A stretch of 64,000 bases of DNA, from IMG/VR virus record IMGVR_UViG_3300029711_000004. One strand, written 5' to 3'. The notes under the pieces are model-generated. The model did no database searches, was not told the origin of the DNA, and worked only from the letters and a program-made list of their open reading frames with translations. Made by a program: the position numbers and the translations under genes. Of the stretch, positions 17,941 through 20,499 are shown one piece after another. The DNA comes from a virus. Taxonomy: Duplodnaviria > Heunggongvirae > Uroviricota > Caudoviricetes. Position 1 is the first letter of the stretch; each line of letters begins with the position of its first letter.

Positions 17941-18642
17941 TTATTCTGATGTTTGCTCAGAAAACGAGCTGGTAAGGGGAAGCCAATCCTCTGACACTTC
18001 GCGAGGTCGCGGTTTGCCGTGGAAAAAGATTATTCGGCAGTCTTTTGGTAATGCCCCATTCCCCCTGGAGTAACGCGCGCTCGCATATTTCGAACCCGGT
18101 TCCACAACATCAGCCTTGTAACTTACAAACCATCCCGGATACAGATCCTGAAATGCTGGTGTATCATCACCCATAACCTTCCGCAAAAACCCCTGATCAC
18201 CCCAGCATTCAGTAGTAACACAACGAGCAATCCAACCTTCCGGATCTTGCCAGAATGCACTCCAGATATGCGCTTTTACACTATTTGGTATCCACAGGGC
18301 ACCGCTGCCACGATATTGTGGATGGTAAAAATCCCTAAGCATGGTGAAGCTGGTTGGTGGATTCTCTAGGATTGGGCGTATATCACCGGCAATAACCGTG
18401 TCCAAATCCAGATAGAACAGATCATCGGTTATATCCGGTCGGAACAACTCGATTTTCGCCCACCAGCCACGGCACTTTTGCCACTGGTTGATCAATGGGA
18501 TAACTTTGACGCCAGGTACATGTAAACACTTCAGGTCTGTCAGGCAAATAATTTCATAGTCTTTTGGCAGTTGATTAACCAGCCACTGCACATCGGAAGC
18601 GTTATAGTCACCACCAGAGCGAAGAACTAAAGCAATCTTCAT
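17941..18642 (-). CDS. Hypothetical protein (233 aa), possible nucleotide-sugar transferase
   Basis: ORF track; YLDLD DxD-like motif; ATGA overlap with ppp. Confidence 0.55.
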
Positions 18643-19331
18643 GCTGCACCATCACCTTTCACTTTCATCAATGTCAGGTTTCCGCAAAATACGGCACCTG
18701 TGTCGATATAATGCTGATTCCAGAATGTCTTCGGGCTTTTCACCGGAGTGTGACCAAAGATAAAACGATCTGCGCCCAAAATTTCGCCACCAATATCATC
18801 CATCGAATCACTGATACGCTCGCGCGCCCAGACAACGTTGAAAAGCGGCACCTCCTTACCGAATTGATATTCATTATCCGGATAGTCGGCATGGGCTATA
18901 ACGATAGTTTCTTGCCCGGTGTTCAACTCAATGATATAGGGCAGACGCTTTACCAGCTCCACCAGCGCCCTGGCTAATATTTCCTGATCAGTGTCCAGCA
19001 TGAAGAACCATTGTCCGCCATTCATTAGCCAGTTATTCACGTTGCCATCAGGACTTAACGCATTGAGCATCAACCGCTCATGGTTCCCCATCACTGCCCT
19101 GAACCAGGGCATCTGCAATAGTTCCAGACATTCGACATTTTCAGTACCGCGATCGATAAGGTCGCCGACCGATATCAGTAAATCCTGCGCCGGGTCAAAA
19201 TCCACACGATGGAGTTCGGACATCAGTCTGGTGTAGCAACCATGCAGATCACCAACAACCCAGACATTCCTGTATTTGGTACCGTCGATACGGTGATAAA
19301 TTGTGGGTGCCATCATGTATTCTTCAGCCAT
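18639..19331 (-). CDS. ppp: Ser/Thr protein phosphatase, PPP family (lambda PPase-like), 230 aa
   Basis: GDLHG, GDLIDRG, GNHE metallophosphatase motifs. Confidence 0.85.
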
Positions 19332-19939
19332 TCTTTAAGAGTCATCTGCGGAATACCTCCCATTTTCCCGCATGAAACAACGTCAATCTGTTCACGCGCA
19401 GACTGGAATAACAAAGGCAGGTGACTTAGATTTTTTGGCGTGCCGCCGGAGTGAACGCGTAGTTCTTGCGTAGCGTCAACGCCCACCAGAGCTACATGTT
19501 TGAATCCGATATGGAAAGCCAGGTTCAGAGCACCATATGCACTATTGCCGCTGGCAATTTCATTCTCATCTTCGCAAAGGCCGAAATGTGCGGACCAGCG
19601 CCACGCCCACCACTCGGGAGAATTCGTATTTTTTGGCTCTGTGCCGCGTTCAGCCACACGACGGAAGCACAGAATGCCGTCTCTGACTTCACGTTCTTTA
19701 ACATCGGGTAGTGCCATGCAATAACAAACACCACGGCGACGGCGGCCACGACCAACGCGCCGCATATTGTCTGGCGATGGATCAAGTGTGAAAAAATAAG
19801 AAGCGCGGTTAAGCCAGTCGATAGCCCCATTGACCGCTATAATCGGCACTCCGCGCGGCGCAACAAAGTTTGCGGCGCTTGGGCCACTGCCGACGATAAT
19901 AACGCGATCACTGCCTCTAAATTTATTCTTGGGAAACAT
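19313..19939 (-). CDS. Rossmann-like protein with GSGPS motif (208 aa), paralog of next gene
   Basis: [10 protein letters not shown]...IIAVNGA; similar layout to 19837..20499. Confidence 0.6.
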
Positions 19940-20499
19940 TGAATTGCACTGCTCCTACTTGCATTCAAAATATGTAAATCTGCGTGTTTTTTGCGGGTAT
20001 CCAGGAACTGCTGTTGCCATTTTGAAATAGACACCTGCGTTGGATTCCGTAGGGCTTGAGGGTGCGCGCCATGCCAATGAATGCCGTTTTGCAGAGAACA
20101 GTCATAGCCGACTAATACCACTACTTCAGCCCCTGATTCAGCGGCCAGACTGATAGCCTGCGCGCCGCTATTTACCCCTTCCGCCGGTCCACAATATCGC
20201 CTGTACTCCAACGAAAATGATTTCGCCGCCGCCAGGTTGGCTGTCACTTTGCGGAACCTCCCTCCCGGTATGGTGGAACCGTATTGCTTCCACCATGACA
20301 AATCACCGGCGTATAAGGCATAAATGTCATCGAACATCTGCCAGGAATTGTTAACCGCGATGATTGAACAGCCAGTTTTTTCTATAGCAGCACAGTCCTC
20401 ACGAGTGAGTGACGGACCGCTACCGACACAAAAAACAGTCCTAGTCGCCCTGGGTGGTATGTTCATTCTCAGCTGCAAATTCAGCCTCCAGGCGAGCAT
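19837..20499 (-). CDS. Rossmann-like protein with GSGPS motif (220 aa), paralog of previous gene
   Basis: TVFCVGSGPS...IIAVNNS. Confidence 0.6.
   Translation of the reverse strand: MLAWRLNLQLRMNIPPRATRTVFCVGSGPSLTREDCAAIEKTGCSIIAVNNSWQMFDDIYALYAGDLSWWKQYGSTIPGGRFRKVTANLAAAKSFSLEYRRYCGPAEGVNSGAQAISLAAESGAEVVVLVGYDCSLQNGIHWHGAHPQALRNPTQVSISKWQQQFLDTRKKHADLHILNASRSSAIQCFPRINLEAVIALLSSAVAQAPQTLLRRAECRL

Follow-up and report, generated by a model that had tools for sequence, protein, structure and literature searches.

What do the products of a short run of phage P1 genes act upon? P1 is a standard laboratory phage, and yet these genes are still labelled as having a 'putative morphogenetic function' or, probably wrongly, as encoding a 'sialyltransferase'. 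They lie in the stretch of viral DNA analysed here (64,000 nucleotides of IMG/VR record IMGVR_UViG_3300029711_000004; hereafter the window), which belongs to a P1-type phage and is 98.9% identical to P1 in a DNA alignment of the pmgO–pmgQ region. An earlier note had picked out two adjacent paralogous proteins, a phosphatase and a putative sugar transferase, and had proposed that these, with a more distant GT-B-like protein, make up a glycosylation or protein-modification toolkit that could remodel the host surface or phage components. The four open reading frames at the centre of that proposal are the known P1 genes pmgO, pmgP, ppp and pmgQ, which bear generic names and whose role in P1 is putative.

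Gene content and transcription of the locus

All four genes are intact and lie on the minus strand, in the order pmgO (19837..20499; 220 aa), pmgP (19313..19939; 208 aa), ppp (18639..19331; 230 aa) and pmgQ (17941..18642; 233 aa), and their products are identical to those of P1 at 219/220, 206/208, 226/230 and 227/233 residues, respectively (97–99.5%). The four proteins are soluble, with a hydrophobic segment in none of them. They are preceded by pmgN (20441..20596, minus strand), a small open reading frame named by transfer of the P1 annotation, which encodes 51 aa in P1 and is identical at all 51/51 residues. It overlaps the start of pmgO and heads the transcription unit pmgN-pmgO-pmgP-ppp-pmgQ; CRISPRi and deletion data conflict as to whether it is essential in P1. 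The genes of the unit are closely packed, the 5′ end of pmgP overlapping the 3′ end of pmgO by 103 nt in the −1 frame and ppp overlapping pmgP by 19 nt and pmgQ by 4 nt. An in-phase A_AAT_TTA heptamer within the pmgO/pmgP overlap was considered as a site of programmed −1 frameshifting from PmgO into PmgP, and was rejected given that such a heptamer is expected by chance in about 10% of cases, that it is absent in a Pantoea relative and that pmgP is provided with an AGGAG site and an ATG start of its own.

The control elements annotated in P1 are also present. The C1 operator Oppp (Op83; 20640..20656, plus strand) lies beside the predicted promoter PpmgN, and the unit is therefore expected to be repressed in the lysogen; the operator bases are the same as in P1, with one flanking base differing over an aligned stretch of 81 nt. 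The late promoter LPpmgL (21578..21596, minus strand), upstream of pmgL, is identical in sequence to that of P1. Together, Oppp and LPpmgL are predicted to place the block under lytic and late control. Just downstream of pmgQ, the P1 annotation puts the C1 operators OpmgRb and OpmgRa with the promoter PpmgR (17874..17939), where operator-like matches are found at 17874–17890 (plus strand) and 17923–17939 (minus strand); judged from these elements, this would be the 3′ boundary of the pmgN–pmgQ unit.

PmgO and PmgP are remote paralogs

PmgO and PmgP have in common a GSGPS motif (residues 26–30 and 17–21, respectively) and an IIAVN motif (46–50, ending in AVN50, and 33–37, ending in AVN37). The further motifs, which are AGD66, NSG110–112, GYDCS131–135, HWHG141–144 and NCSR179–182 in PmgO and TLD53, GNSA131–134, GVD153–155 and an invariant H173 in PmgP, follow in the same order. 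Pairwise BLASTP gives an alignment limited to the N-terminal 36 residues (E = 0.004), whereas profile–profile comparison of the two families by hhalign extends over 164 columns with 98% probability and E = 1.4e-13. This figure was obtained with a fused homolog (P0052) left out, an earlier alignment that included it having been dominated by it. The two proteins described as paralogs in the earlier note are indeed so, at a remote distance.

The AlphaFold models of PmgO and PmgP (pLDDT 87 and 94) share their four best structural matches; matches of the two to unrelated folds were what the earlier note had named as telling against it. For both models the top match is a Maf flagellin glycosyltransferase, and the archaeal MptE kinase and the Cst-I sialyltransferase are matched as well, the sialyltransferases coming from two CAZy families. 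On these models the fold would be of the MptE-like/GT42-sialyltransferase/Maf type, and 'Rossmann', as it had first been called, is right only loosely. Family searches are in line with this, in that 33 of the 34 members of the PmgO family match PF01973 (MptE-like/DUF115) at E ≤ 1, the best at 3.1e-8, and several homologs of the PmgO/PmgP type have a precomputed PF01973 assignment; the window proteins themselves score 23.4 and 20.9 bits, below the cut-off of 34.6. Single-sequence searches of the PDB with PmgO, PmgP or PmgQ gave chance-level matches only, the PmgP family profile had no match there, and NCBIfam contains a usable family neither for PmgO nor for PmgQ. The PmgO family alone comprises some 3,700 cluster representatives that have no assigned function.

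Histidines stand out among the conserved residues, with H141 and H143 of PmgO invariant and H146 at least 90% conserved, and the invariant H173 of PmgP placed directly before a helix. Among these may be the counterpart of His188, the general base of Cst-II. As the fold is also that of the archaeal HPPK (MptE) and thiamin pyrophosphokinases, PmgO and PmgP might instead be pyrophosphokinases of this type, activating a small molecule or nucleotide for PmgQ and for the methyltransferases described below, as in a DNA or cofactor modification. This we regard as quite improbable. It is a glycosyltransferase that heads the structural matches of both proteins, with sialyltransferases next, and the weak sequence matches point to motifs of Cst-II; P1 DNA, moreover, is not known to be hypermodified.

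PmgQ is a predicted GT8-like glycosyltransferase

The 233-residue protein in which a DxD-like motif had suggested a sugar transferase bears out that suggestion. PmgQ contains VLRSGG (residues 6–11), K63, D79-x-D81 (here D79-L-D81), GDQG (148–151) and H208-G-x-P-x-P; among 43 homologs K63, D79, L80 and D81 are invariant and G148, D149, Q150 and H208 at least 90% conserved. A profile of these 43 homologs matches, in the PDB, Gat1 (6mw5; E = 6.1e-8, profile positions 30–198 of 210), some 18 different glycogenin sequences (E = 5e-6 to 2.5e-4; glycogenin-1, 5.4e-6) and the bacterial GT8 entry 5gvv (E = 2.7e-5). In the alignments the motifs fall on YIDAD/FMDAD, TKL and GDTG/GDQG of Gat1 and glycogenin, and H208 two residues after their metal-binding histidine. 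PmgQ also matches PHROG 1962, 'glycosyltransferase', at E = 1.9e-125. Searched alone against Pfam, the P1-type protein finds no family at E ≤ 1, and so no Glyco_transf_8, and its homologs have no precomputed Pfam domain. The profile matches and motifs nevertheless argue strongly that PmgQ is a GT8-like (glycogenin/Gat1-like) glycosyltransferase of the GT-A type.

Ppp and Dbn stand apart

The gene between pmgP and pmgQ is of another kind. Ppp was rightly called a Ser/Thr phosphatase, matching Pfam Metallophos with 59.5 bits against a cut-off of 21.5 (E = 8e-16), PHROG 246 (NinI-like) at E = 1.8e-112 and NCBIfam PRK11439 at E = 6e-82, the last under the cut-off of that model; as a lambda NinI-type metallophosphatase it is, according to the P1 record, 64% identical to the phosphatase of lambda. 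An HMM of Ppp matches the P1-like loci (L086–L088) only and has no match in 17 non-P1 loci or in 80 viral loci, all of which bear cassette genes. Its presence between pmgP and pmgQ in P1-like phages alone therefore marks ppp as an insertion, that is, as an unrelated lambda-type phosphatase gene outside the conserved cassette.

The GT-B-like protein reported to follow ban is Dbn (26434..27432, minus strand; 332 aa), encoded with the gene for the DnaB-type helicase Ban (27432–28802) directly upstream of it. Its match to Glycos_transf_1 (E = 1.5e-5) scores 25.0 bits, slightly short of the 26.4 required, and two related families are matched as well; Dbn is a possible, borderline GT-B (GT4-like) enzyme that falls below threshold. 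It lies about 6 kb from the cassette, beyond the baseplate genes, and no case of linkage to the cassette was noticed in those other loci that happened to be inspected. In the Pfam searches, which the earlier note had proposed, Ppp scored above its cut-off and PmgO, PmgP and Dbn below theirs, and PmgQ had no match.

That both paralogs, Ppp, PmgQ and Dbn should act as one integrated toolkit, in which dephosphorylation is coupled to glycosylation, appears most improbable in the light of this separation. The overlaps of ppp with both neighbours do suggest translational coupling, the P1 annotation places the Dbn unit under C1-controlled lytic expression as it does pmgO–pmgQ, and a GT-B fold may be present in Dbn. 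Against this, Ppp is missing wherever the cassette was examined outside P1-like elements, the lambda NinI-type phosphatases nearest to it occur in different genomic contexts, and baseplate genes separate Dbn from the rest. What survives of the toolkit is its glycosyltransferases, for which synteny favours phage components as the target over the host surface; the phosphatase falls outside it. A role in defence was also considered and dropped, PADLOC having found no defence-system match for the six proteins submitted.

A mobile cassette in phages of Gram-negative hosts

A finding that is new in this analysis is that PmgO, PmgP and PmgQ travel together as a mobile cassette, present in phages that infect Gram-negative hosts and are unrelated to one another. 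The survey combined a scan of species-representative genomes with a viral scan seeded with distant PmgQ homologs; a scan of viral contigs with the PmgP alignment gave near-identical P1-type contigs only and is not its basis. The taxa concerned are Enterobacterales, Pseudomonas, Alphaproteobacteria, Bacteroidota and Gemmatimonadota, every named host is Gram-negative, and PmgP and PmgQ occur together in every locus with enough flanking sequence. Natural fusions join PmgO to PmgP and PmgO to a Methyltransf_24/TylF domain (a sugar O-methyltransferase), and the partner genes found inside the cassette encode SAM/FkbM methyltransferases or a second, Nucleotid_trans-like GT-A enzyme. These partners and fusions indicate sugar chemistry. 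They argue further against pyrophosphokinase activity of PmgO and PmgP, given that folate, thiamin and nucleotide-metabolism genes were absent from the cassette contexts examined, where glycosyltransferases and sugar-type O-methyltransferases were present instead, and that the cassette lies among head genes and not replication genes.

The cassette is usually located inside head-gene modules and often directly 3′ of the major capsid gene. Of the 13 viral loci with a recognised capsid, 12 have it straight after the major capsid gene and ahead of the connector and head-closure genes, an arrangement found also in L105–L108, of which L105 is an Ochrobactrum and L106 a Pseudomonas prophage, and in 15 out of 80 loci anchored on the capsid gene. 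Elsewhere it follows a T7-type capsid gene (L271), sits within a Mu-type head module (L272) or in a siphovirus connector region (L273), and in a lambdoid prophage it is found between the lysis and terminase genes. The short C-terminal tails of the capsid proteins next to the cassette contain Ser/Thr, as do those of related capsids that lack it, and so give no acceptor signal. In P1 the cassette is part of a late-promoter, C1-controlled block that adjoins baseplate genes, control of a kind that would suit a virion acceptor; its position away from capsid gene 23 runs against one.

Two further settings are also at odds with such an acceptor. Phage Chlobot has an isolated PmgQ homolog next to its integrase, where lysogenic-conversion genes are classically found, and in chromosomes of Serratia and Pseudescherichia/Enterobacteriaceae the three genes are interleaved with Big_1-rich inverse-autotransporter/invasin proteins, with no phage genes around. 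The first would fit a modification of host LPS, with PmgO and PmgP adding an extra Kdo in the manner of WaaZ and PmgQ a hexose in that of WaaO/WaaJ, such that the altered core blocks superinfection or sticking to debris. The LPS core is the P1 receptor, the GT8 superfamily to which PmgQ is assigned includes LPS core glucosyl- and galactosyltransferases, and all hosts are Gram-negative. Moreover, the LPS Kdo III transferase WaaZ (GT73) provides the sole recurrent NCBIfam match of the PmgP family (TIGR04437, a weak match for 12 of the 40 members, with E = 0.006 at best), and its Pfam family PF27901 (WaaZ_KDO_III) faintly matches a PmgO–PmgP fusion. Membership of the WaaZ family was nonetheless rejected, the TIGR04437 score of 11.9 bits lying far below that family's cut-off of 200 and hhalign to E. 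coli K-12 WaaZ giving a probability of 12% for PmgP and 18% for PmgO; this weak similarity also counts against the reading favoured below. An LPS target is in our view unlikely. Most contexts are late head-gene modules, and LPS newly made at that stage can hardly replace the existing surface; the P1 unit, being C1-repressed, would be off in lysogens; and the cassette offers no flippase or membrane partner, nor any protein with a hydrophobic segment.

The adhesin islands suggest another acceptor, namely non-virion proteins glycosylated in the cytoplasm. These would be proteins of the host or else Ig-like (Big_1) adhesins destined for secretion; adhesins of the latter kind are glycosylated, from an LPS precursor, by autotransporter heptosyltransferases. 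A PmgO homolog with attached Big_1/Big_13 domains exists, albeit with sub-threshold scores for the domains, and Maf enzymes are reported to modify Ser/Thr in a secreted protein ahead of its export (PMC4065374). We hold this acceptor to be unlikely; in phages, head genes dominate the contexts. None of ten P1 proteins searched (capsid, sheath, tube, baseplate and others) has Big_1 or Ig-like domains, and the adhesin islands may be just another cargo site.

A proposed role in virion glycosylation

The reading that we favour, tentatively and short of an even chance, is that the three genes are a non-essential late cassette which uses nucleotide sugars of the host, perhaps CMP-Kdo and a UDP-hexose, to glycosylate proteins of the virion. 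Their products would be soluble cytoplasmic glycosyltransferases, the cassette being interrupted by ppp in P1-type phages. PmgQ would act as a GT8-like retaining hexosyltransferase with UDP-hexose as donor, and PmgO and PmgP as minimal (~200 aa) Maf/GT42 catalytic cores, with glycosyltransferase rather than kinase chemistry. During lytic growth, presumably also that of P1 itself, the enzymes would assemble a short glycan on an acceptor protein, for which one or more virion (head) proteins are the likeliest candidates, and the particle would thereby gain a dispensable surface decoration like that of the glycosylated mycobacteriophages. In P1 the cassette genes pmgO–pmgQ and ppp are non-essential, and their deletion causes neither a plaque nor an anti-restriction defect, as expected of a decoration. 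Recent cryo-EM papers on P1 mention no glycan on the particles, nor unassigned density that might represent one, and the paper on the P1 virion proteome does not discuss pmgO, pmgP, ppp or pmgQ.

As to the donor, all characterised glycosyltransferases of the Maf/GT42 fold transfer CMP-activated ulosonic acids, and CMP-Kdo is the sole such donor known in E. coli K-12; the presence of Gram-negative hosts throughout is compatible with Kdo, and CMP-Kdo is lacking in Gram-positive bacteria. Because K-12 is not known to make CMP-sialic acid, the substrate implied by the label 'sialyltransferase' is almost certainly wrong. Maf enzymes have been found to O-glycosylate Ser/Thr with Kdo taken from the CMP-Kdo of E. 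coli. It is conceivable, if doubtful, that in P1, as in thousands of phages of Gram-negative bacteria that have not been cultured, the capsid or other proteins of the virion receive a short O-linked glycan that contains Kdo and is in some cases methylated, with CMP-Kdo drawn from the host LPS pathway and minimal Maf-like PmgO/PmgP acting together with GT8-like PmgQ. If so, this would be the first known virion glycosylation outside actinobacteriophages and would bring to light a hitherto undescribed family of enzymes for the O-Kdo-ylation of proteins. In mycobacteriophages, glycosylation is known to weaken recognition by antibodies. If the cassette does glycosylate virions, its compact soluble enzymes would be of use for protein glyco-engineering in E. 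coli, and decorated particles would matter for phage therapy and P1-based delivery vectors. Should LPS or an adhesin prove to be the acceptor, the three genes would still be a well-delimited unit open to testing, from which ppp can be separated as unrelated.

Comparison with known systems

Among characterised enzymes, the closest in fold to PmgO and PmgP are the Maf flagellin nonulosonic-acid O-glycosyltransferases of Magnetospirillum (PDB 5mu5) and C. botulinum. Maf is much the larger, with about 630 residues in 5mu5 (632 in the matched chain) and extra N- and C-terminal domains, whereas PmgO and PmgP, at 220 and 208 aa, are bare cores of about 200 aa that occur as a pair or a fusion and are 16–17% identical to Maf; neither flagellar nor nonulosonic-acid biosynthesis genes were seen near the cassette in any locus examined. 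To Cst-I and Cst-II of Campylobacter (GT42) the sequence likeness consists of weak matches to Cst-II motifs, which are not significant (E = 0.35–0.7). The donor of WaaZ is CMP-Kdo, which alone among CMP-sugars is shared by the hosts; WaaZ itself acts on LPS and is encoded in the waa operon. For PmgQ the nearest counterparts, glycogenin and the Skp1 alpha-galactosyltransferase Gat1, both have protein acceptors and are longer than its 200–230 aa or so.

At the level of the whole system, the best parallel lies in the mycobacteriophages Che8, Corndog and Myrna, in which phage-encoded glycosyltransferases are reported to modify capsid and tail-tube subunits and to be dispensable for growth (Freeman et al., 2023). 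The relatives of the P1 cassette resemble these systems in having glycosyltransferase and methyltransferase genes within head-gene modules. The mycobacteriophage hosts are Actinobacteria, and the P1 cassette is likened to these systems by gene context; if its virions do prove to be glycosylated, the glycosylation of phage particles would extend from the mycobacteriophages to the phages of Gram-negative bacteria.

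Gene content and regulation

The window comes from a phage or plasmid-prophage of the P1 type; its bases 17000-21500 share 98.9% identity with P1 and 97-99% with P7, SJ46, RCS47 and others. The counterparts of P1 pmgO (20499..19837), pmgP (19939..19313), ppp (19331..18639) and pmgQ (18642..17941) all lie on the minus strand as intact open reading frames, with 1, 2, 4 and 6 residue differences from the P1 reference, respectively, and none of the four proteins has a hydrophobic segment. Three of these four genes are labelled solely 'putative morphogenetic function' in the original P1 record, and RefSeq, following PHROG labels, names PmgO 'alpha-2,3-sialyltransferase' and PmgQ 'glycosyltransferase'. 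Because the genes and such generic labels are already in databases, the bare observation is known; our literature search found no paper on the function of pmgO, pmgP, ppp or pmgQ. CRISPRi knock-down and single-gene deletions have demonstrated that none of the four P1 genes is needed for plaques, and the deletions leave anti-restriction unaffected.

The P1 record places the C1 operator Oppp and a promoter upstream of pmgN, and a late promoter upstream of pmgL; all these sequences are kept in the window. The C1 operator consensus ATTGCTCTAATAAATTT has 14 matches in the window when ≤3 mismatches are allowed, whereas 0.42 would be expected by chance (examples lie at 1481, 15782, 17874, 17923, 21547, 31485, 35007, 49209 and 51592). 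These are the known dispersed C1 regulon of P1, and the annotated Oppp is too divergent to be recovered at this threshold. Elsewhere, window positions 52001-54000 have a G+C content of 0.36 versus about 0.47-0.50 in the remainder and include an open reading frame (52778-53851) whose product has a bacterial SH3 domain at its C terminus; the segment may have been horizontally acquired.

Folds and motifs of the probable glycosyltransferases

The earlier note had reported a DxD-like motif in the 233-residue PmgQ, and D79-x-D81 is indeed present. As a single sequence PmgQ has no match in Pfam, but a profile of 43 homologues matches solved GT8 enzymes (Gat1, E 6e-8; glycogenins, E 5e-6 and weaker), with the DxD, Lys and GDQG motifs aligned to those enzymes and conserved. 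PmgQ is very probably a GT8-type transferase, and both of its nearest solved relatives, glycogenin and Gat1, modify proteins. The GT-B-like protein that the note placed after ban also exists: Dbn (26434..27432, minus strand), encoded directly downstream of the DnaB-type helicase Ban, matches the GT-B family Glycos_transf_1, although its 25.0 bits fall short of the 26.4 cut-off. Because it matches this and two related families just under threshold, Dbn may be a fourth P1 glycosyltransferase, separated from pmgO-pmgQ by the block of baseplate genes.

PmgO and PmgP both carry the GSGPS and IIAVN motifs, and their proposed relationship as adjacent paralogues is borne out, but it is remote: BLASTP aligns no more than the N-terminal 36 residues, whereas the family profiles align over 164 columns (E 1.4e-13), sharing the motif order G-x-G-P-S, A-V-N, x-x-D, N-S-(G/A), G-x-D and His. 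Fold relatives include SteA, thiamin pyrophosphokinases and animal GT29 sialyltransferases. The P1 sequences score under the Pfam MptE-like threshold, a family touched by 33 of 34 PmgO relatives, and the PmgO profile has a weak match to the sialyltransferase Cst-II that coincides exactly with the nucleotide loop and the SG...G-x-D motif. The sole recurrent NCBIfam match of the PmgP family is the LPS Kdo III transferase WaaZ (12 of 40 members, best E 0.006), and Pfam WaaZ_KDO_III is recorded faintly on one fused homologue; direct comparison of both families with E. coli WaaZ was not significant. We consider it likely that PmgO and PmgP are glycosyltransferases rather than kinases.

The 3' end of pmgO overlaps the 5' end of pmgP by 43-121 nt in P1, a Citrobacter rodentium prophage and others, and a natural PmgO-PmgP fusion of 376 residues (P0052) is encoded next to a PmgQ gene. 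In the window the overlap is 103 nt (19837-19939, minus strand), with pmgP in the -1 frame, and contains an in-phase slippery-type heptamer, A_AAT_TTA (19924..19918, minus strand), at which a -1 slip would yield a fusion resembling the natural one. The heptamer is probably a chance occurrence, since the Pantoea relative does not share it and pmgP is equipped with an AGGAG site and an ATG of its own.

A conserved cassette interrupted by Ppp

HMMs for PmgO, PmgP and PmgQ were run on 20 loci, two found via homologues and 18 via a scan in which each bacterial species was represented by a single genome. At every locus with a long enough contig PmgP and PmgQ co-occur, and most loci also have PmgO. 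The hosts span Enterobacterales, Zhongshania, Commensalibacter, Brevundimonas, Methylophilaceae, Sinomicrobium (Bacteroidota) and Longimicrobiales; all named hosts are Gram-negative, including those of cultured phages of Escherichia, Cronobacter, Citrobacter, Xanthomonas and Stenotrophomonas. Genes recurring inside the cassette encode SAM-dependent methyltransferases (Methyltransf_11/23/24, FkbM) or a second small GT-A protein of Nucleotid_trans type. Among 3,727 cluster representatives of the PmgO family (E ≤ 1e-10), some are fused to a sugar O-methyltransferase of Methyltransf_24/TylF type and one, at sub-threshold scores, to Big_1/Big_13 Ig-like domains. Such partners and fusions fit glycan assembly and not the pyrophosphokinase branch of the fold, so that pyrophosphokinase chemistry for PmgO and PmgP, which the fold itself would permit, is improbable.

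Ppp is an ordinary metallophosphatase of the lambda NinI type. Its HMM matches only the three P1-like loci among the 20 and none of 80 further viral loci; given this restriction, Ppp is not a component of the cassette but was inserted into it in the P1 lineage. The glycosylation or protein-modification toolkit envisaged in the earlier note thus survives in its glycosyltransferase assignments and loses its phosphatase; an integrated phosphatase-plus-glycosylation system, contradicted by the distribution of Ppp, is most improbable. Ppp (18639-19331, minus strand) also matches bacterial Pnkp and a PHROG bearing the label RNA ligase, both weakly, and Pap (15798-16304, minus strand) belongs to the PNKP-type HAD phosphatases (Pfam HAD_PNKP, E 6e-12), giving P1 two phosphoesterases of kinds used for nucleic-acid end healing. 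Nearby PmgM (20663-21241, minus strand), annotated 'putative morphogenetic function', has a VRR-NUC nuclease domain (Pfam, 21.3 bits against a 23.8 cut-off), and a PHROG that it matches at E 4.8e-27 bears the label Holliday junction resolvase; this suggests a role in DNA processing rather than a structural one.

Position among head genes

The most informative result on the cassette is its position. Its genes lie directly 3' of the major capsid gene and 5' of the connector and head-closure genes in four HK97-type prophages that are unrelated to one another (Ochrobactrum, Pseudomonas, Martelella-like and Onishia). Searches with distant PmgQ homologues yielded 80 viral contigs; a narrow capsid HMM recognised the capsid in 13 of them, and 12 of the 13 have the order capsid, PmgO, (connector), PmgQ, (methyltransferase), head-closure; when the capsid protein itself was used for retrieval, PmgO was the next gene in 15 of 80 contigs. 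In three further samples PmgQ follows a T7-type capsid gene, lies within a Mu-type head module and precedes a siphovirus head-closure gene, respectively. A lambdoid Citrobacter prophage has all three genes between its lysis genes and terminase, and another phage has them after the lysis cassette; in P1 they do not adjoin capsid gene 23. Beside the cassette in two prophage loci are small proteins of 93-95 residues (L106, 10843-11124; L107, 7654-7941) that appear, by eye, to be enriched in Ser, Thr, Ala and Gln and could be decoration proteins or acceptors.

There are exceptions. Coliphage Chlobot has a lone PmgQ beside integrase and tail-fibre genes, a context that, with the faint WaaZ similarity, the GT8 relationship of PmgQ and the Gram-negative host range, would suit modification of the LPS core; the late placement within head modules and C1 repression in P1 make this unlikely. 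In chromosomal islands of Serratia (L004, 4500-17800, which also has a lipoxygenase) and Pseudescherichia/Enterobacteriaceae (L090-L094, about 2200-16400), the three genes are interleaved with Big_1-rich inverse-autotransporter/invasin adhesins. These islands are a home for the cassette outside phages and may reveal its acceptor. Together with the Big_1 fusion of a PmgO homologue they lend support to glycosylation of adhesins or host proteins, which is slightly less likely still, the Big_1 domain being absent from the ten P1 proteins examined.

Proposed function and comparison with known systems

Our preferred reading, glycosylation of virion proteins late in infection, is tentative in its full form, and falls somewhat short of even odds. 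The analysis establishes the fold assignments, the motifs, and the conservation and synteny of the cassette, whereas the PmgO/PmgP chemistry, the donors, the acceptor and the occurrence of any of this in P1 are inferred. The cassette would encode a set of soluble, cytoplasmic glycosyltransferases, which would assemble a short glycan on a protein acceptor, most probably one from the head or elsewhere in the virion. PmgQ would act as a retaining hexosyltransferase with a UDP-hexose as donor, and PmgO and PmgP would be stripped-down Maf/GT42-type transferases. To our knowledge, all characterised glycosyltransferases of the Maf/GT42 fold use a CMP-activated ulosonic acid, and CMP-Kdo is the only such donor we know of in E. 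coli K-12, where it would be the donor for PmgO and PmgP. Maf enzymes expressed in E. coli attach Kdo to Ser/Thr. The lack of a plaque phenotype for pmgO, pmgP and pmgQ is consistent with a dispensable decoration, should it occur in P1 at all; the P1 virion and cryo-EM literature searched reports no glycan, and capsid C-termini gave no informative acceptor signature.

It appears not to have been stated before that pmgO, pmgP and pmgQ make up a widespread cassette in which Ppp is an intruder, that this cassette is preferentially embedded in head-gene modules, or that its partner genes and fusions are indicative of protein glycosylation. The prediction, purely computational, is that the phage encodes a glycosylation system whose set of enzymes is unusual; it is specific and, if true, notable. 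A dispensable decoration of this kind would have a parallel in mycobacteriophages, whose own enzymes are reported to glycosylate capsid and tail-tube subunits.
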